This document shows, one piece after another, positions 2,225 through 19,850 of a stretch of 22,786 nt of DNA. A program made the position numbers and the translations under genes. This stretch comes from a virus. Lineage: Duplodnaviria > Heunggongvirae > Uroviricota > Caudoviricetes. Position 1 is the stretch's first letter. Each line of letters begins with the position of its first letter. The stretch is from the IMG/VR virus record IMGVR_UViG_2547132415_000008, positions 1 through 22,786 of that record. One strand, given 5' to 3'. Under the pieces are notes generated by a model. It was not told the DNA's origin. It worked only from the letters and a program-made list of their open reading frames with translations, and did not search any database.

Positions 2225-2946
2225 AATCGGCATACCGGGCCGGAGTCCTTAGCCTCCGTGATATAGGCGAGAAATACGGCGTAACAGAAGGGGCTATCAG
2301 GAAGAGGGCTAAAAAGCTTGGTTGGGTACGCAGTGGCGGTACGCAGGTTTGCAAAAATGGTACGCAAAAAAGAAAAGTGCGTACCAGCAGAAAGCCTGCC
2401 ATTACTGGCCTTACACAAAAAGGTACGCAACCAAAAACAGAAGCTACACCGGATACGAAACCGATACGCGGAATGCGTACCGATCCCCCGACTAACCCAT
2501 TCCAACCCGGTAACCAGCAGGCATTAAAACACGGTGGTTATGCCCGTCGCCTTCTGCTCAAAGATGAGGTGATAGAGGACGCTAAAGCGTTGACGCTCGA
2601 GGACGAATTATTTCGCCTTCGTGCTAACAACCTTGTCGCTGCAGAGAATATTGGTCGGTGGCTGGTGTCGCTGGAAGATGCTAATGGGGACCAGGAAAGG
2701 AAGATGCTGATGGAAAATATCAGCGCCGCCGAGAAAGCAATGATGCGCAATACAGTTCGTATTGAGTCCATCGTTGGCACGCTTGCGACGGTAGGAAAAA
2801 TATTTGCTGATACAGCCTACCGCAAGGCCGCCACTGATAAGGTGTCTCTGGAGGCTGATCGTCTTCGCCGTGATGCAGGTATTGATGATGGCAATGGAGA
2901 GCGTGACCTCAATGACTTCTACTCTGACATCCAAACCGACGCTTAA
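2197..2946 (+). CDS. Terminase small subunit (N-terminal helix-turn-helix DNA-binding domain)
   Basis: Strong RBS AGAGGA 7 nt upstream of ATG 2197, with an in-frame stop just before it. N-terminal LSLRDIGEKYGVTEGAIRKRAKKLGW is HTH-like. Located directly upstream of the large terminase. Confidence 0.8.
   Translation: MAKPDWEAIESAYRAGVLSLRDIGEKYGVTEGAIRKRAKKLGWVRSGGTQVCKNGTQKRKVRTSRKPAITGLTQKGTQPKTEATPDTKPIRGMRTDPPTNPFQPGNQQALKHGGYARRLLLKDEVIEDAKALTLEDELFRLRANNLVAAENIGRWLVSLEDANGDQERKMLMENISAAEKAMMRNTVRIESIVGTLATVGKIFADTAYRKAATDKVSLEADRLRRDAGIDDGNGERDLNDFYSDIQTDA
2325..2481. repeat. Cluster of six copies of the 8-bp motif GGTACGCA / TGCGTACC inside the small terminase gene; candidate pac or terminase recognition site
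   Basis: Read directly: GGTACGCA at 2325, 2338, 2359 and 2422; reverse complement TGCGTACC at 2378 and 2474. Encodes a repeated GTQ-containing basic linker. Confidence 0.5.
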
Positions 2947-4315
2947 TCCGGCTTTACGTAGTTTCTGGACTACGCGGGCACGTAACAAAGTGCTTTATGG
3001 TGGCCGGTCATCGTCAAAATCATGGGATGCCGCTGGCATTGCCATATTTCTGTCGAATAAATACACTCTGCGTTTTTGTTGTGCCCGTCAGATCCAGAAC
3101 AAAATCGAAGAGTCGGTGTATACCCTGCTCAAAATTCAGATAGACAGGTTTGGCCTGCGGCACCGTTTCCGTATTCTGAACAACAAAATCATTAACCGGG
3201 TTACTGGCTCGGAATTTGTTTTTTATGGATTATGGCGCAACATCGAAGAAATTAAGTCACTGGAGGGGATCGATGTGTTGTGGCTGGAAGAAGCCCACGC
3301 ACTGACGGAATACCAGTGGAAAATTCTGGAGCCAACGATCCGTAAAGAGGGGTCGGAATGCTGGTTCATATTCAACCCCGGACTTGTTACTGATTTCGTC
3401 TGGCGCAACTTCGTTGTTGATCCGCCCGAAGGCACTCTCATCCGCAAAATTAACTATGACGAAAATCCGTTTCTGTCTGACACCATGCTTAAGGTTATCG
3501 ACGCGGCGCGACGCCGTGATCCGGATGGTTTTAAACATGTGTATGAGGGCGTTCCGGAGTCTGATGATGATGCGGCAATCATCAAACTGTCCTGGATAGA
3601 AGCCGCAGTGGATGCGCACAAAACGTTAAATTTCGAACCCAGTGGAAGAAAGCGTATTGGCTTTGACGTGGCTGACAGTGGTACAGATAAGTGCGCTAAC
3701 GTTTACCGTCACGGATCCGTTGTTTTCTGGGCCGACGAATGGAAGGCCAAAGAAGATGAATTACTGAAGAGCTGCCAGCGTACTTATCAGGCGGCGCTGG
3801 AGCGTGAAGCAGATATTGTTTACGACTCTATCGGTGTTGGTGCGTCTGCCGGTGCTAAATTCTCTGAAATTAACGCTGACCGGAAGAGCGAGAATGCATA
3901 CGCGAGACGAGTGAATTACCAGAGGTTTAACGCCGGTGCTGGTGTGCATGAGCCAGATGACGAATACAACGGCATCCCCAACAAAGACTTTTTCGCAAAT
4001 CTTAAGGCTCAGGCATGGTGGCTGGTGGCTGACCGTTTCAGAAATACGTTTAACGCCATTAACAACGGAGAACAGTATCCTGTGGATGAGCTGATCAGCA
4101 TAGATTCTAGTTGTCCGTTGCTTGAAAAGCTGAAACTGGAACTGACAACACCTCATCGCGATTTTGACCGTAACGGACGTGTGATGGTCGAAAGTAAAAA
4201 AGACCTCGCAAAACGCGAGATACCGTCACCAAACGTTGCTGACGCATTCATTATGGCCTTCGCGCCAATTGATACATCGCTGGATATCTGGGAACAGCTG
4301 GGGAGACAGGCCTGA
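2894..4315 (+). CDS. Terminase large subunit (ATPase plus nuclease)
   Basis: Walker A-like YGGRSSSKSWD near the N-terminus; acidic nuclease-type motifs downstream; size about 470 aa. Start uncertain (ATG 2894 or 2912; the track ORF begins at 2804), overlapping the terS 3' end. Stop overlaps the portal start (TGATG). Confidence 0.85.
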   Translation: MESVTSMTSTLTSKPTLNPALRSFWTTRARNKVLYGGRSSSKSWDAAGIAIFLSNKYTLRFCCARQIQNKIEESVYTLLKIQIDRFGLRHRFRILNNKIINRVTGSEFVFYGLWRNIEEIKSLEGIDVLWLEEAHALTEYQWKILEPTIRKEGSECWFIFNPGLVTDFVWRNFVVDPPEGTLIRKINYDENPFLSDTMLKVIDAARRRDPDGFKHVYEGVPESDDDAAIIKLSWIEAAVDAHKTLNFEPSGRKRIGFDVADSGTDKCANVYRHGSVVFWADEWKAKEDELLKSCQRTYQAALEREADIVYDSIGVGASAGAKFSEINADRKSENAYARRVNYQRFNAGAGVHEPDDEYNGIPNKDFFANLKAQAWWLVADRFRNTFNAINNGEQYPVDELISIDSSCPLLEKLKLELTTPHRDFDRNGRVMVESKKDLAKREIPSPNVADAFIMAFAPIDTSLDIWEQLGRQA

Positions 4316-5781
4316 TGGCACGAAACAAACAAGCCCTGCGGCGAACTGCGCAGGCCACAGCTGATGGTTATGAGAATTTTATTGCCCGCGTAGGGATGCA
4401 GACACCTAACCAGCACTCAGCATCCACCTACCGGGCTAATTTCACCAGTCGTAACCGCATGCTGGTGGAATGGTCCTATCGTTCGTCCTGGATCATCGGC
4501 GAAGCGGTCGATGCTATCCCGGATGATATGACCCGCAAAGGCATTCGCATCACTTCGGAAATTGATGCAAAAGATCGCGGCATTCTCGAATCACAACTGG
4601 ATGAGTTGCAAATCTGGGATGCGCTGAATGACGTGCTGAAATGGTCGCGCCTCTACGGCGGCGCGGTGGGTTTCATCATGATTGAGGGGCAGGCACCAAT
4701 GACCCCGCTGCGACCCGAAACCATCGGTAAGGGCAAGTTTAAGGGGATTCTCCCGCTCGACCGCTGGATGATTGACCCGGTACTGACCCGCCGCATTAAA
4801 GATATGGGGCCGGACCTGGGTAAACCTGAGTTTTACGATGTGGTGACCACAGCAACGGGAATTCCTGCCTGGCGCATTCATCACAGTCGCCTGATTCGCT
4901 TTGATGGCGTCACGCTGCCATTTCAGCAGAAGATGACCGAGAACGAATGGGGAATGTCGGTTGTAGAGCGTATCTGGGATCGTCTTACCGCGTTCGACAG
5001 CGCTACTGTCGGCGCGGCGCAGCTGGTCTACAAGGCGCATCTGCGCACCTACAGCGTGGAGAAGCTACGCGAGCTTATCGCACTTGGTGGTCCTGCGTAT
5101 GAAGCGTTGCTGAAGAATATCGACCTGATTCGACAGTTCCAGAGCAATGAAGGTATGACGCTCATGGACTCGCGGGATAAGTTTGAAACGCATCAGTACA
5201 GCTTCAGTGGTCTGGATGACATCCTTTCGCAGTTTGCAGAACAGATTAGTGGCGCTGTTGGTATCCCACTGGTGCGGTTGTTCGGACAGTCCCCGAAAGG
5301 ATTTTCTACCGGCGATGCAGACCTTGCCAACTATTACGACCGGGTAAGCTCGTTACAGGAGAGGCGTTTACGTCTTCCGGTGCGGCGGATACTGGACATC
5401 ATGCATCGTTCGGAGCTTGGCAAGCCGCTGCCGGACGATTTCACGTTTGAGTTTAACCCGCTCTGGCAAATGTCTGATGTCGATCGCTCAACGGTGGCGT
5501 TAAACACTACCAACGCAATCAGTACGGCGCTGGGTGATGGTCTGATGACACTGAAAGCCGCTATGACTGATTTGCGCGAAAATTCTGACGTAACCGGCAT
5601 CGGGGCATCCATTACCGACGAGGACATCGAGAATGCCGAAGATGAAGCGCCGCCCGGCATCGGCGAATCTGATGACGAACCGCAGGAACCGTCAGGCGGA
5701 AATCCGCTATCGAACCAGCCTACGCAGGATAGCGCGGGCGGTCGGAGACATCGTAAATGGTCGCTACGATGGTTCAAATGA
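4315..5781 (+). CDS. Portal protein
   Basis: 488 aa immediately after terL with coupled start and GGGGAGACAGG upstream. Acidic C-terminal tail (DEDIENAEDEAPPGIGESDDEPQEP) typical of portals. Position and size. Confidence 0.8.
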   Translation: MARNKQALRRTAQATADGYENFIARVGMQTPNQHSASTYRANFTSRNRMLVEWSYRSSWIIGEAVDAIPDDMTRKGIRITSEIDAKDRGILESQLDELQIWDALNDVLKWSRLYGGAVGFIMIEGQAPMTPLRPETIGKGKFKGILPLDRWMIDPVLTRRIKDMGPDLGKPEFYDVVTTATGIPAWRIHHSRLIRFDGVTLPFQQKMTENEWGMSVVERIWDRLTAFDSATVGAAQLVYKAHLRTYSVEKLRELIALGGPAYEALLKNIDLIRQFQSNEGMTLMDSRDKFETHQYSFSGLDDILSQFAEQISGAVGIPLVRLFGQSPKGFSTGDADLANYYDRVSSLQERRLRLPVRRILDIMHRSELGKPLPDDFTFEFNPLWQMSDVDRSTVALNTTNAISTALGDGLMTLKAAMTDLRENSDVTGIGASITDEDIENAEDEAPPGIGESDDEPQEPSGGNPLSNQPTQDSAGGRRHRKWSLRWFK

Positions 5782-6406
5782 CAGTATCACGGAAATTATT
5801 GAGGCGCTGGAACGCTACAGTGAAATCATCACCCCCTGGGCGACAAAGGTCGCGGAAAACTTTACTGCGGACCTAACCCGGCAGAACGAGAAAGTTTGGC
5901 GGCAACACAGCAAGAACATCAGTCGCGAGCTCCGCAATCTTGTGGAAAGCGCTCCTGTGGGCCAGGTGATGCAATCCATCATCGCCGAACAGGTCAAGTA
6001 CATCAAATCGCTCCCCCTCGAGGCGGCTGACAGGGTGTACGACATCCAGAATCGGGCGACAGAAGCTGTTGTGACCGGTGGGAGAGCAGAATATTTTGCT
6101 AAAGAAATAGCCGCATCGGGTGATATAGCAAAGTCCAGAGCTGACCTGATTGCCCGTACTGAACTTGGACGTGCAACCGGCGCGCTGGATCAGGCGCGTG
6201 CGCTGTCAATTGGTTCGAATGGTTATATCTGGCGTACAGCCGAAGATGGTGACGTCAGGCATTCTCATCGGGAAATGGAAGGTAAATTTGTCGAATGGGG
6301 CAAACCTCCAACGCTTGACGGCATGACCGGTCACGCTGGCGAGCTCCCGAATTGTCGCTGTTATAAAGAAATCGTTTTTCCCACCTCCCAATCTTATCCC
6401 GCCTGA
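5633..6406 (+). CDS. Head morphogenesis protein (SPP1 gp7 / Mu F-like)
   Basis: 257 aa following the portal; basic N-terminus, and the conserved-looking C-terminus SNGYIWRTAEDGDVRHSHREMEGK resembles minor head protein family signatures from memory. The start overlaps the portal by about 149 nt; a later start at 5642 or 5672 is possible. Confidence 0.65.
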   Translation: MPKMKRRPASANLMTNRRNRQAEIRYRTSLRRIARAVGDIVNGRYDGSNDSITEIIEALERYSEIITPWATKVAENFTADLTRQNEKVWRQHSKNISRELRNLVESAPVGQVMQSIIAEQVKYIKSLPLEAADRVYDIQNRATEAVVTGGRAEYFAKEIAASGDIAKSRADLIARTELGRATGALDQARALSIGSNGYIWRTAEDGDVRHSHREMEGKFVEWGKPPTLDGMTGHAGELPNCRCYKEIVFPTSQSYPA

Positions 6407-16317: not shown

Positions 16318-17379
16318 ATGTCACAGAACTGGATGAGACATTTCGAGCTGCAGCTTGTGGACGGGAACGGTCAGGGAATTGAGCTAAGTGATTTTAAAGT
16401 CACCTTTACGATCGACTGGTTCAACATCAGCAGCGCGTCCCGGGTAGGGACTATCAAAATTTATAACCTCTCGGCAGATACTGTGAACCGAATCACCGGG
16501 CAGGAGTTTTCGAAAGTGCGTCTGATTGCCGGTTACGACGGTATCGCGCCGGAGGTGTCGGCAAGCGACGTCGGGACCGTGCGGGAAGTTGACGCGGCGG
16601 ACGTGGGTCAGAGTGATGGCCGCAACTACGGACTGATTTTCAGCGGTGAAATTCGCTACTCGGTCACAGGAAAAGACAGTCCGGTTGATTCCTACGTCCT
16701 GATTCAGGCAGCAGATACTGATCTGGCTTTTGCCACCAGTATAACCTCACAGACGCTGGCTGCCGGTTACACGGTCGCTGATGTAAACCGTGCGCTGATG
16801 AAAGACTTCGAAGCCAAAGGCGCGACCGAAGGCCTGACGCCTGAAATGCCTGCTACTGTATTCCCCCGGGGGCGGGTACTCTTTGGCATGACGCGGCATC
16901 TAATGGATAACGTAGCCGGGCAATGTGGCGCAACATGGCAATTCGTGGACGGTCAGCGCCAGATGGTGGCGAATAACGAATATGTTCATGAAGCGATTGT
17001 GCTCAACAGCGCTACCGGGCTTATTGGCATGCCGCAGCAGACTATCGGTAACGGCGTAAACGTCCGCGCGCTTATTAATCCGAACATCCGGGTTAACGGA
17101 CTTATTCAGCTGGATCAGGCTTCCGTGTATCGTACCGCCTTGTCGAACAACGATATTGCGATGGCTGGTGGTCAGATCACCGACCAGAACACGGATGGAA
17201 ATATCACGCTAAGCGGCACCACATCGCAGCCTGCCAGCATCGCAACGGATGGCGTTTATATTGTGCGCGGGATTATGTACACTGGCGACACAAGGGGCCA
17301 GGCGTGGTACATGGATATGATGTGCGAAGCGCGTGGCGCGGCGGATCTGTATACGCGATCGGCTTTGCAAAGGGGATGA
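16318..17379 (+). CDS. Baseplate hub / tail protein (hypothetical)
   Basis: 353 aa; RBS GGAG upstream; position after tape measure and small tail proteins. Confidence 0.5.
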   Translation: MSQNWMRHFELQLVDGNGQGIELSDFKVTFTIDWFNISSASRVGTIKIYNLSADTVNRITGQEFSKVRLIAGYDGIAPEVSASDVGTVREVDAADVGQSDGRNYGLIFSGEIRYSVTGKDSPVDSYVLIQAADTDLAFATSITSQTLAAGYTVADVNRALMKDFEAKGATEGLTPEMPATVFPRGRVLFGMTRHLMDNVAGQCGATWQFVDGQRQMVANNEYVHEAIVLNSATGLIGMPQQTIGNGVNVRALINPNIRVNGLIQLDQASVYRTALSNNDIAMAGGQITDQNTDGNITLSGTTSQPASIATDGVYIVRGIMYTGDTRGQAWYMDMMCEARGAADLYTRSALQRG

Positions 17380-17382
17380 GCA

Positions 17383-17724
17383 ATGAGGGGTATTATTTTT
17401 CTGTTAGCTGTCTTTTCTGCGTGCAGCGCGTGGGCGGATGGCTTCACGGTTAAATGCGGTGGCTACACTATGGTTGCAAACCAGGGCGAGTTATCGACTA
17501 TCAACGGTGAAAGAGTTACCTCTCAAAAAATCACCGAACTGGGTACCAATGGTTTGAAAGTAGACATGGGGCTTATGCCTGCCAAAGACGGTAACAACTA
17601 CGGCTTTGAATACATTCGTCGCCCTGGTACCGAAACGCGATTCCTGAATATCCAGCTTCTGCAGAACAGCATGGATGCGCCGAAAATCATCGGATCTTTC
17701 CCTTGTAAAAAAGTGGCTGGGTGA
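17383..17724 (+). CDS. Small secreted protein or lipoprotein with N-terminal signal peptide (moron candidate)
   Basis: 113 aa; MRGIIFLLAVFSACSAWADG has a hydrophobic core, a lipobox-like FSAC and an AWA-DG signal peptidase I site. Two further Cys in the mature part. Not expected for a virion tail component. Confidence 0.6.
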   Translation: MRGIIFLLAVFSACSAWADGFTVKCGGYTMVANQGELSTINGERVTSQKITELGTNGLKVDMGLMPAKDGNNYGFEYIRRPGTETRFLNIQLLQNSMDAPKIIGSFPCKKVAG

Positions 17725-17750
17725 AGGTAACCTGAAATTCGTAACGCCTG

Positions 17751-17789
17751 AAAAACAACAAAATGTGCTCTAAAAACTGTTGTTTTTTG
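17751..17789 (+). terminator. AT-rich hairpin with T-run, weak candidate terminator upstream of the cassette
   Basis: AAAAACAACA (17751..17760) pairs with TGTTGTTTTT (17778..17787); loop is 17 nt; T-run follows. Weak. Confidence 0.3.
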
Positions 17790-17809
17790 AGACGAGCGAT
17801 TACACTGCA

Positions 17810-17850
17810 CTGACTTTTTGATGGTGGATTGCCATCGATATGCTACTTCA
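17810..17850 (+). promoter_or_regulatory. Possible cassette promoter (TTGATG -35-like at 17818..17823, TATGCT -10-like at 17839..17844)
   Basis: Hexamers read by eye; spacing is 15 bp, which is suboptimal. Low confidence. Confidence 0.2.
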
Positions 17851-17873
17851 TTAAAGCCAGGAATAACTAAAAC

Positions 17874-18605
17874 ATGAGTTTAGCGCAGCCAAAATCAGGA
17901 GAACTGTTAGATCTTCTGACTCCTTCATTAACTAAGGGTGAAAACCTTCTGAGTGAGTTTGAAATCCATCGAATCATTCGTGAAGCGAAGAAACTACCTG
18001 AACGTTATCAGGGGCTATCAATTGAAGGCTTAGCTAAGCTTGTTCTTGGTGAAATAGATGAAGGATGTTCACTCTGTGAGCGGGGGTTGAGAATAGCGCC
18101 TAACGATCCAGTTTCTTTTTGTAACTATACGATTGCGCTGCGTAACTTAGGTTTGCATGCTCGCCAGTATGTGATGATTCAGAAAGCATCTGATTCACTT
18201 AATCCAACGATATTGGCTGAGGTTGCTACAATTTCTGCATACTGGGTTGATATCGATTTGCTTGAAAAGGTGATGCCGATGCTAACTGCAATGGAAGTAC
18301 CGCGCCCTGAAGATATGGGCAAATGGTATGACACGCTCAATTATCTGCATACCCAAAAAGATCATGCTCAGGAGCTAAAAACTATTGGGCGGCTCATGAT
18401 GAACGTTGCAGAAAAGTACCGCGCTCGTCTTGCTGGCGCTCATGCTTTTTATGTAATGTCAGAACTTGATACGCTGTTCGTTGAAGTCAAAACAGACGAT
18501 CCAGTGCTTCTTTCGCAGATGAATAATGCCTTGGCTGATGAGATTATTATTGCGGGGCTTGCGGATTCAGAATGCGTCGGATGCTTTGAAGCCGGGGAAC
18601 TCTAA
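17874..18605 (+). CDS. Cassette gene A: uncharacterised 243-aa protein, helical, TPR-like segment and two CxxC motifs
   Basis: ATG 17874 with AGGAATAA upstream. Lower GC than flanking tail genes by eye. CSLC near residue 64 and CVGC near residue 232; segment GLRIAPNDPVSFCNYTIALRNLGLHARQYVMIQKA looks TPR-like. Stop overlaps gene B start (TAATG). Confidence 0.7.
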   Translation: MSLAQPKSGELLDLLTPSLTKGENLLSEFEIHRIIREAKKLPERYQGLSIEGLAKLVLGEIDEGCSLCERGLRIAPNDPVSFCNYTIALRNLGLHARQYVMIQKASDSLNPTILAEVATISAYWVDIDLLEKVMPMLTAMEVPRPEDMGKWYDTLNYLHTQKDHAQELKTIGRLMMNVAEKYRARLAGAHAFYVMSELDTLFVEVKTDDPVLLSQMNNALADEIIIAGLADSECVGCFEAGEL

Positions 18606-19033
18606 TGTCGGTTGAGCATACCTGTTTTCTTGAATTGGCTAAGCATTCCCTGGCTCTAAACGGTGAGATGTGGACGAGAAATGCTATTAGCCGAGCATAC
18701 TATGGTATGTACCATTCCGCCTTACGGATCACCAACAATCTGGTACCGACCGCTACACAAGATGGTGAAAAACTAAAAGGTGGAGTTCACATGCGAGTCT
18801 ATACGGCCTTTTGTAGTGGTGAGGCAGCTGCACTTAACGATGTTGATGTTAACGCAGTAAAGAAAATCGGCGTTAAACTGAAAATGACGCATGCCCAACG
18901 TGTTAATTCTGATTACAAGCTTGAGCGGAAAATCAACCGGATTACCGCGAGAAGTGTAATTCTGGATGCGGAAGAGGTCGATGCAATCGTTAATCAATTA
19001 CTGAAGATTGGTGATGACTCGTTAACTGCATAA
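18605..19033 (+). CDS. Cassette gene B: uncharacterised 142-aa protein with HEPN-like R-x6-H motif (RAYYGMYH)
   Basis: Translationally coupled to gene A; low GC by eye; followed 22 nt later by a strong intrinsic terminator. Motif RAYYGMYHSALRI resembles the HEPN helix signature from memory; unverified. Confidence 0.7.
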   Translation: MSVEHTCFLELAKHSLALNGEMWTRNAISRAYYGMYHSALRITNNLVPTATQDGEKLKGGVHMRVYTAFCSGEAAALNDVDVNAVKKIGVKLKMTHAQRVNSDYKLERKINRITARSVILDAEEVDAIVNQLLKIGDDSLTA

Positions 19034-19054
19034 GCTGAAATTTCTCAAAATTCA

Positions 19055-19078
19055 AACCCGCCACTTGGCGGGTTTTTT
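19055..19078 (+). terminator. Rho-independent terminator closing the cassette
   Basis: AACCCGCC (19055..19062), loop ACTT, GGCGGGTT (19067..19074): 8-bp GC-rich stem followed by TTTT. Confidence 0.8.
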
Positions 19079-19097
19079 GCTTTCTGGAGCCTACTAA

Positions 19098-19850
19098 ATG
19101 GCAGTATCTGACCAGACCCGCAGCGGCGACCTTGCCGAAACATTTAAATCTGAACGGGAAACAACAAAGAACCAGATCCGTGTCGCCTTGCCTGGCATTA
19201 TTCAGTCATTCGATCCTGACGCGGTGACGGCGGTTGTGCAGCCAGCTATCCGGTCAGTTGAAAAGGATAACGACGGTAACCGCATTACCAAAAATTACCC
19301 ATTGCTGGTGGATGTGCCAGTGGTATTCCCGCGCGGCGGAGGCTGTACGTTGACTTTTCCGGTAAAAGCTGGGGATGAGTGTCTTGTCGTTTTTGCCGAT
19401 CGTTGTATTGATTTCTGGTGGCAGAGCGGCGGGATACAGGAGACGGTTGATGACAGAATGCATGATTTATCGGATGCGTTTTGTATTGTCGGTCCCCAGT
19501 CGCAGGCTAGGAAGATTAGCGGTATTAATACCAGTGCCACACAGTTGCGTAGTGACGACGGCAGCACCTATTTTGAGCTTAATCCTGATACCAGGAAAAT
19601 TAAAATTGTCGCTCCGGGGGGGCTTGATGTGGTTGCCCCCCTGGCTGATTTTTCTGAGAAAGTAACCATTCATGGCCTGTTAACCTGGATGGGGGGCATG
19701 GTGGGGTCTGTGGTTTCTGGTGTGGCTTCAAAAATCACTGGTGCTGTTGAGTTTTTGGGGAGCGTGAAGGCTAACGGCAAGCCAATCGATGATACGCACA
19801 CTCATGGCGGTGTTCAGCGCGGTGGAAGCAATACCGATGGGGTAAACTGA
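19098..19850 (+). CDS. Baseplate central spike / assembly protein (gpV-like)
   Basis: 250 aa; RBS GGAG 8 nt upstream; followed by coupled baseplate wedge genes; Gly-rich C-terminus. Confidence 0.55.
   Translation: MAVSDQTRSGDLAETFKSERETTKNQIRVALPGIIQSFDPDAVTAVVQPAIRSVEKDNDGNRITKNYPLLVDVPVVFPRGGGCTLTFPVKAGDECLVVFADRCIDFWWQSGGIQETVDDRMHDLSDAFCIVGPQSQARKISGINTSATQLRSDDGSTYFELNPDTRKIKIVAPGGLDVVAPLADFSEKVTIHGLLTWMGGMVGSVVSGVASKITGAVEFLGSVKANGKPIDDTHTHGGVQRGGSNTDGVN

Follow-up and report, generated by a model that had tools for sequence, protein, structure and literature searches.

A candidate HEPN toxin-antitoxin or abortive-infection gene pair in a variable slot among the tail genes of Brunovirus-like Escherichia coli prophages

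Introduction

The AF0298-like HEPN-T proteins (UPF0332) are classical HEPN proteins, which usually form the toxin of modules with a minimal nucleotidyltransferase (MNT-HEPN modules) and are represented by the structure 2hsb. In these proteins and in AbiV, the arginine of the HEPN motif Rx4-6H is kept and the histidine is lost; Anantharaman et al. (2013, PMC3710099) propose that a second conserved histidine, located in the insert that separates helices 2 and 3, completes an alternative active site. AbiV of Lactococcus is a metal-independent ribosomal RNA nuclease (rRNase) in abortive infection of the toxin-antitoxin (TA) type (type III) (10.1101/2024.05.05.592566). HepS of Gifsy-1 (PMC13043305) and Tha of Staphylococcus aureus prophages (PMC11087260) are HEPN proteins of prophages that act in abortive infection when triggered by phage tail proteins, and both show how a prophage carries such a toxin unharmed. 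Here, we describe a two-gene cassette, A-B, located among the tail genes in a 22,786 nt stretch of viral DNA (IMG/VR record IMGVR_UViG_2547132415_000008, positions 1 to 22,786; hereafter the window), in which gene B encodes a HEPN protein and gene A a protein with a TPR-like helical array.

The window belongs to a Brunovirus-like E. coli prophage, in which a hypervariable slot is occupied by A-B as a moron. The fold of B and its invariant polar residues, the strict linkage of A and B, their mobility, the variability of the slot and the lack of a match to a named system are direct observations. We favour, at slightly better than even confidence, the reading that A-B is an autonomous mobile TA or abortive-infection module, in which B would be a ribonuclease (RNase) toxin and A its antitoxin or a sensor. 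An earlier note, made from the sequence of the window alone, had put the cassette forward as a candidate defence or abortive-infection module. The candidacy is supported, as none of the tests proposed there for its refutation that were run came out against it, and the role is one that we infer.

Results

Gene layout and base composition

Coordinates were taken from a mechanical list of open reading frames (ORFs) in the window. Gene A (positions 17874-18605, + strand) and gene B (18605-19033, + strand) both start with ATG and encode proteins of 243 and 142 amino acids, respectively. The stop codon of A and the start codon of B overlap by one base (cTAATGt, positions 18603-18607), so that the gene positions and the TAATG coupling given in the earlier note are exact in both the ORF list and the sequence. 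The upstream gene ends at 17724, and the 149 bp non-coding gap 5' of A described there is likewise present (17725-17873). A HEPN gene translationally coupled to an upstream partner is a classic TA and abortive-infection architecture. Two small co-directional, overlapping and strictly co-inherited genes, as found here, are a trait of type II TA systems, and the gene order, partner first and HEPN second with an overlap, is that of type II and HEPN-MNT modules.

The GC content of A and B (0.440 and 0.441) is lower than that of the 27 other genes in the window (0.519 ± 0.027; z -2.96 and -2.92, respectively), as is the GC content at third codon positions (GC3; 0.377 and 0.413 versus 0.553 ± 0.059; z -2.97 and -2.37), and the two genes have the lowest GC and GC3 of all 29. 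The sliding profile dips over about 17600-19200. A lower GC content than that of the cassette occurs in 1.7% of 1160 bp sliding segments, the minimum starting at 17751, and such segments thus overlap the cassette itself. As judged by a leave-one-out likelihood, the synonymous-codon scores of A (-1.21) and B (-1.20) are low but not outlying, because several structural genes score equally. Hence, of the deviation from the flanks in GC and codon usage that had been anticipated, the drop of about three standard deviations in GC and GC3 was found and an unusual codon choice was not; the anomaly is one of GC and GC3, with no distinct codon dialect.

Protein B

Protein B is a four-helix up-and-down HEPN bundle of the AF0298/UPF0332 (HEPN-T) type, and its nearest neighbours in a structure search were AF0298, TT1696 and sacsin. 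No Pfam or NCBIfam family matched B, and no match to PF05168 was obtained at E ≤ 0.01. In a profile search of the Protein Data Bank (PDB), the sole match was to 2hsb (E = 0.15, 18% identity), with both motifs aligned. Some relatives of B are labelled 'UPF0332 family' by JGI.

The motif GGxH62xR of B is situated between the helices at residues 21-43 and 61-71. As H62 lies in the helix 2/3 insert, B fits the published description of the AF0298-like HEPN-T proteins. Residues H37, H62, R99, D103 and Y104 are invariant in all 46 distinct B-family sequences, down to about 25% identity.

Protein A

Protein A consists of a TPR-like helical array at about residues 7-181 followed by a C-terminal beta-beta-alpha-beta domain at residues 186-240. 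A PDB profile search with A retrieved TPR proteins over residues ~50-110. No family in Pfam, NCBIfam or PADLOC matched, the best PADLOC model being PDC-M71B (E = 0.037), and both A and B belong to PHROG families of unknown function. Searched against the PDB, a profile of the C-terminal domain gave spurious matches only (a designed helical repeat and an IMP nucleotidase). A degenerate MNT at the C-terminus of A was considered and rejected, given that the G[SG] and DxD motifs are lacking and no nucleotidyltransferase (NTase) was matched, the isolated domain not having been fold-searched.

Among 1.84 billion representative proteins, full-length relatives of A are 236-276 amino acids long, carry no domain fusions and fall into a few dozen clusters at the 50% identity level; other matches in that scan were long generic TPR proteins aligned over the repeat region only. 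The identity of B exceeded that of A in 98% of 741 pairs of loci, which shows that A evolves faster. Its variability peaks at residues 141-170 and 191-200, and its N-terminus, including residues 41-50 (LPERYQGLSI), is conserved.

Comparison with described systems

No PADLOC v2 (PADLOC-DB v2.0.0) model, Pfam or NCBIfam family or RefSeq name covers the pair, and no paper in the searchable literature was found for the UniProt and RefSeq accessions or the PHROG identifiers of A and B. The accessible part of the DefensePredictor supplements contained no signature peptides or accessions of A or B. The earlier note had matched neither protein to a named system, and this held in Pfam, NCBIfam, PADLOC v2 and the searchable literature.

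B differs from the AF0298/UPF0332 proteins in that the similarity (18% identity, E = 0.15) is below Pfam and NCBIfam detection. Its partner is a 243 amino acid protein with TPR repeats and a beta-beta-alpha-beta domain rather than a minimal nucleotidyltransferase, and A-B occurs in mobile elements of Proteobacteria, whereas AF0298/UPF0332 proteins are found in archaeal or thermophile chromosomes. Unlike the type VII TA system HepT-MntA (Shewanella SO_3166/SO_3165, 5yep; Aphanizomenon HEPN/MNT, 7ae2), the pair includes neither an MNT gene nor the catalytic histidine in B. Assignment to HEPN-MNT was rejected, as there is no adjacent nucleotidyltransferase gene and A has no NTase match or motifs. 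Neutralisation of B, if any, is more likely to occur by binding than by AMPylation.

AbiV is, like B, a small HEPN protein with AF0298, TT1696 and sacsin as structural neighbours, and belongs to a branch that does not strictly conserve Rx4-6H. It is the best experimental precedent for such HEPNs acting as abortive-infection RNases. However, its antitoxin is an RNA (abiV2) and the L. lactis protein has the sequence RNHKSKH; an identification of A-B with AbiV was rejected on account of the protein partner and the lack of detectable sequence similarity (no AbiV match in PADLOC). HepS and Tha resemble A-B as HEPN effectors in prophage accessory slots, and the A-B copy of Klebsiella phage vB_Kpn_Chronis lies in the same kind of early accessory region. 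These are single proteins with a canonical RX4-6H and no partner gene. A-B, with two genes, a non-canonical motif and no sequence relationship of B to either protein, was not identified with them.

The DefensePredictor system DS-28, validated in E. coli, also consists of two genes, for a HEPN protein and a protein of about 250 amino acids of unknown function, but in reversed order and with the canonical RNSVAH in the HEPN protein. The A and B profiles gave negative bit scores against both DS-28 proteins, and this assignment was likewise rejected. It is credible that A-B represents a HEPN toxin module with a new class of partner, and HEPN-based candidates are numerous. If confirmed, the TPR/small-domain protein would be a new HEPN partner class besides MNT, RnlB and RNA antitoxins, and the pair would be a tractable model for the 'alternative-histidine' site of the large UPF0332/AF0298 branch.

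Linkage and mobility of the pair

A was accompanied by B in about 80 loci, at identities down to ~25% for B and ~15% for A, and B lies directly 3' of A in all loci with a close relative of A. A genome-wide scan with the B profile identified 34 loci. Distant B proteins (25-35% identity) were found in Providencia, Morganella, Shewanella, Azonexus, Methylocaldum, Yersinia, Proteus, Xenorhabdus, Serratia, Pararobbsia and Glomeribacter, among others. Nearly all of their genes abut or overlap an ORF of 244-335 amino acids on the upstream side, and an iterated search joins these ORFs to the A family.

In Lelliottia, the pair follows the tape-measure gene of a lambdoid siphophage or prophage; in Klebsiella siphophages it precedes this gene, and in Serratia it is near the prophage end. 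In vB_Kpn_Chronis (gp57-gp58; locus L083, 3267-4423; A 26%, B 49% identity) it lies in a lambdoid-type, nin-like early region. Free-standing copies occur between ABC-transporter genes in Pseudomonadales and between an MFS-transporter gene and mutS in Pararobbsia. Five integrases were found among the genes flanking 20 distant loci, together with S24 repressors, CII, and portal and tail genes. Selfish mobility, with the free-standing copies as one part of it, was counted in favour of the TA or abortive-infection reading. A-B is essentially missing from plasmids and rare in sequenced phage isolates. The sole plasmid match, in a Salmonella conjugative plasmid (CP049309.1, 304514-304648), is an unannotated remnant of the last 45 codons of B with 93% identity.

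A variable cargo slot between g113 and the spike gene

In the window, the pair is directly followed by the gene for the baseplate central spike and is preceded by g113, a gene of 113 codons that separates it from the baseplate hub gene. Placing the cassette between hub and spike, as had been done, is thus accurate for the spike side, and g113 intervenes on the hub side. Related phages align with both flanks and not with the middle. In pairwise alignments with relatives that carry other cargo, homology breaks off at 17712-17715 on the left and resumes at 19054/19055 on the right, which delimits a replaceable slot at 17716-19053.

The tail module is present in 355 of the 5426 complete E. coli genomes. 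The A-B coding region was found in 33 of these 355, and 19 further genomes carry divergent alleles, so that the pair is missing from at least 85% of the prophages with the same tail module. The isolated relatives SEN34 and vB_EcoM-689R2 lack the pair, and Yersinia phage YP3 has only A. With the whole segment 17725-19097 as query, 214 partial E. coli matches were obtained versus 33 genomes with the coding region alone; the former probably arise from the non-coding stretches at the edges of the query, for example the terminator segment of the backbone.

Several other occupants of the slot were identified. Escherichia phage vB_EcoM-689R2 carries an ORF of 170 amino acids (locus L001, 1915-2427; the same gene is in L004) that has no match in Pfam or PADLOC. 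Its sequence RNNLFH is a canonical Rx4H motif, and the product may, from this sequence, be a solo HEPN protein. In SEN34, the slot holds a gene for 138 amino acids that could not be confidently assigned to a family; another ORF annotated there, of 77 amino acids, overlaps the g113 homologue. A DUF2335 membrane protein of 190 amino acids is a further occupant, and in E. coli 98201 (NZ_CP173561.1; locus L078, 1608-2598) an ORF of 190 amino acids precedes the gene for a type II toxin of the YafO family (Pfam E = 4e-17). The hotspot is thus shared by another toxin-type pair, unrelated to A-B, and this was counted in favour of the TA or abortive-infection reading.

The slot also holds relatives of A-B. 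In the E. coli OkiPb01683 type (locus L079, 1562-2715), found in 12 complete E. coli genomes, A and B are 31% and 48% identical to those of the window. In enteropathogenic E. coli (EPEC) E2348/69 (NZ_CP059840.2; locus L081, 1545-2697; proteins WP_000113597.1 and WP_001123212.1), representing 7 genomes, B is 29% identical and A is barely alignable. Both pairs gave strong profile matches (1e-38 to 1e-45) and are, as judged by these, divergent alleles of the A-B family. Three deeply divergent A-B alleles in the slot were counted among the evidence for the TA or abortive-infection reading. In IMG/VR contigs, A in the slot is 61-100% identical to that of the window, with no correlation to backbone identity; in locus L069, for example, the hub and g113 proteins are each 97% identical, and A and B are 69% and 71% identical. 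As the identity of A is uncoupled from that of the backbone, the alleles have been replaced rather than having diverged together with it. The A-family gene of YP3 (PV092592.1; locus L002, 2095-2895) is intact and encodes 266 amino acids, with a profile E value of 1e-56 against the broad family. No B gene follows it, and only 123 bp separate it from the spike gene. It may be an antitoxin captured for counter-defence, or a cassette that has lost B.

The question raised in the earlier note, whether this junction is a variable hotspot, is thus answered by the differing cargo of the relatives. The description of the cassette as a horizontally acquired moron agrees with its presence or absence between collinear relatives (breakpoints at about 17715 and 19054) and with GC and GC3 z scores of about -3. 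The hub/spike junction of Brunovirus-like prophages, which occur in ~6.5% of complete E. coli genomes, is a newly recognised cargo hotspot.

Leader and terminator

A non-coding leader (17716-17873, + strand) moves with the cassette, the homology to relatives with other cargo ending at 17712-17715. Blocks of this leader are kept across alleles in which A is 61-93% identical to that of the window: a hairpin with a T-run, ATTACACTGC, TTTTGAnGG, TTGCCnTC and an AGGAA ribosome-binding site. The copy in Lelliottia is preceded by a related box, TATTAAACTGC. From these conserved blocks, we infer that the leader would carry regulatory or expression signals of the cassette's own.

The weak hairpin reported in the gap is present at 17751-17787 (+ strand). 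It is A/T-rich, with a perfect stem of 10 bp (arms 17751-17760 and 17778-17787) and a loop of 17 nt, runs into a T-tract, and is partly kept as AAAACG/CGTTTT in the alleles of 69% identity. It could act as a weak terminator or insulator, or in regulation. Taken over its full length, the gap folds no better than shuffled sequence (z -1.19). The promoter-like hexamers reported alongside it were not borne out, as a consensus scan of the + strand of the gap found no sigma-70-like site.

The intrinsic terminator at 19054-19084 (+ strand; stem 19054-19075 followed by a T-run) has 9 pairs, 6 of them G-C, and a loop of 4 nt, with a folding energy of -18 kcal/mol (z -2.96). Homology to loci L001, L003 and L004, which carry other cargo, resumes at 19054/19055, and the terminator is therefore backbone DNA that forms the right edge of the slot. 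The structure said to close the cassette is real, but is not a part of it. Thus, of the own promoter and terminator expected of a moron, the cassette has a conserved leader that moves with it, without a sigma-70 consensus, and the terminator is shared with the backbone. Rfam searches of 17300-19300 gave only sub-threshold terminator look-alikes.

A strong terminator just 5' of the spike gene, within a string of co-directional tail genes, is kept in the relatives with other cargo. Expression of the downstream baseplate genes would therefore involve read-through, antitermination or a separate promoter.

Proposed function and alternatives

In the TA or abortive-infection module that we favour, A would be translated just ahead of B from one mRNA by way of the TAATG coupling, and would bind B and keep it inactive. 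B would dimerise and probably cut RNA at a non-canonical site composed of R99 and of H62 from the helix 2/3 insert, aided by H37, D103 and Y104, in place of Rx4-6H. The TPR array of A, notably residues 141-170, would sense a phage or stress signal and release B, which would then stop translation and so abort the infection by a competing phage or kill cells that lose the element. Counted in favour of this proposal are the fold of B and its conserved polar residues, the order and overlap of the two genes, their linkage across deep divergence, the faster change of A with its hypervariable patch, the low GC and GC3, the integrases, repressors and defence-type genes near distant copies, and the precedents HepS, Tha and AbiV.

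Several points weigh against it. B lacks the canonical Rx4-6H, reading R99-V-N-S-D-Y104, with the arginine invariant and an invariant tyrosine at the position of the histidine. The alternative histidine site of the AF0298 branch is a published hypothesis only, and some HEPN domains are non-catalytic binders (PMC3710099). The PADLOC match of B to HEPN_IX is marginal (E = 0.009) and reaches at best 1.6e-4 for the divergent alleles. Residues 25-33 of B are also invariant in the 46 sequences, but were the search pattern used for loci L011-L044, so that conservation there is partly an artefact; the B protein of E2348/69 (RNTISRAYY), which falls outside this pattern, keeps all key residues. Searches of Pfam, NCBIfam and known folds revealed no DNA-binding (HTH, RHH or AbrB), nucleotidyltransferase or other antitoxin domain in A. 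The absence of a sigma-70-like site in the gap counts here as well: transcription of the cassette may simply be shared with the late tail genes, and expression in the lysogen is therefore presumed, as are the RNase activity and toxicity of B, its neutralisation by A and the trigger. Finally, PADLOC models match some neighbours of the distant loci (SoFic, MzaA, DRT reverse transcriptase, PD-T4-6, methyltransferases and a type IV restriction endonuclease-like helicase), a list that is suggestive and was drawn up with no background comparison.

The architecture would equally serve a pure addiction system that stabilises the prophage without a part in defence, in which cells that lose the pair die through the toxin B once the labile antitoxin A is gone. 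The overlap and strict linkage of the genes, the free-standing copies between housekeeping genes, which behave as selfish TA cassettes, and the YafO-family TA toxin in the same slot of other prophages are all consistent with it. However, a sensor engaged in an arms race would account better than a simple labile antitoxin for the hypervariable patch of A and for its deep diversification within a single slot, and many prophage TA or HEPN modules have proved defensive (HepS, PMC13043305; Tha, PMC11087260; AbiV). Addiction alone is accordingly considered unlikely; the two roles are mutually compatible.

No more probable is that B is a catalytically dead HEPN protein that binds RNA or a nucleotide, and A-B a regulatory or accessory pair of use to the phage rather than a toxin system, for example for the modulation of host or phage translation at a late stage of infection or for superinfection exclusion without cell death. 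The missing histidine (R99-x4-Y104) and the existence of non-catalytic HEPN binders (PMC3710099) point in this direction, as does the orientation of the pair with the late tail genes, which with no consensus promoter would be compatible with late expression. Against this, five polar or charged residues are invariant down to ~25% identity, as expected of a catalytic site, and match the site proposed for this branch; the conserved leader moves with the cassette, and the free-standing chromosomal copies serve no phage.

Phages are known to encode antitoxin mimics, such as Dmd of T4, which acts against RnlA and LsoA. The solo A of YP3, with no B in the same slot, recalls these mimics, and the LsoA-Dmd structure 5hy3 was among the structure-search matches. 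A counter-defence role of the pair against host systems, with A for example neutralising host HEPN toxins as a mimic of their antitoxin, is nevertheless very unlikely, since A occurs with B in the ~80 loci, the pair is also found outside phages, and the solo A of YP3 is equally explained by loss of B.

A role of A and B as virion or tail-assembly factors, for example with the TPR protein A as a chaperone of the spike or fibres of this tail type in particular, would suit their location and orientation between the hub and spike genes and the fact that TPR proteins are often chaperones, but is hardly tenable and effectively refuted by the distribution. The pair is missing from at least 85% of the prophages with the same tail and from SEN34 and vB_EcoM-689R2, is reduced to A in YP3, and occurs at other positions in siphophages, within an early region and at loci outside phages; it has a foreign GC content and no structural matches to tail proteins. 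This bears out the earlier impression that neither protein looks like a virion component: only 33 of the 355 genomes with the tail module carry the pair, and neither product resembles a baseplate or fibre-assembly protein.

A bolder form of the TA or abortive-infection proposal is offered as speculation. A-B could belong to an unnamed and widespread HEPN immune family of Proteobacteria, in which A would be both inhibitor and receptor of a phage protein, with residues 141-170 setting specificity and allele swapping as the footprint of an arms race. B would then cut RNA through an H62/R99/Y104 site never characterised biochemically, and the solo A genes of phages such as YP3 would be antitoxins captured for counter-defence. 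Genetic tests are easy, as a divergent allele is present in the model pathogen EPEC E2348/69 and the cassette is self-contained and ~1.3 kb in size.

Prophage context

The window is the structural-gene arm of a contractile-tailed E. coli prophage resembling Brunovirus (Salmonella phage SEN34). The genes are arranged in the order tape measure, Dit-like, a gene for 100 amino acids, baseplate hub, g113, A, B, central spike, gp25-like sheath initiator, baseplate J and DUF2612. The hub gene (16318-17379, + strand) was assigned by its match to phrog_196 ('baseplate hub', E = 1.2e-88) and a weak match to PF22759. The product of the spike gene (19098-19850, + strand), annotated in RefSeq as membrane-puncturing spike protein, has the PF18352 N-terminal domain and an Apex motif. 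Several E. coli chromosomes contain the cassette DNA at 100% identity, including that of strain WAT, in which the two proteins (WP_000050470.1 and WP_000110002.1) are both annotated as 'hypothetical protein'.

On the left flank, g113 (17383-17724, + strand) belongs to phrog_3443, a PHROG of unknown function, and is present 3' of the hub gene in all relatives, yet is mosaic between them. Its product is 54-99% identical in contigs with hub proteins of 96-100% identity, and 26-35% identical in more distant backbones. As g113 is itself mosaic, the variable region may begin within it.

In the packaging and head region, the mechanical list gives two pairs of + strand ORFs that overlap by more than 140 nt, namely 2197-2946 with 2804-4315 and 4315-5781 with 5633-6406. 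Probably, either the furthest-upstream starts are not the real ones or the overlaps are programmed.

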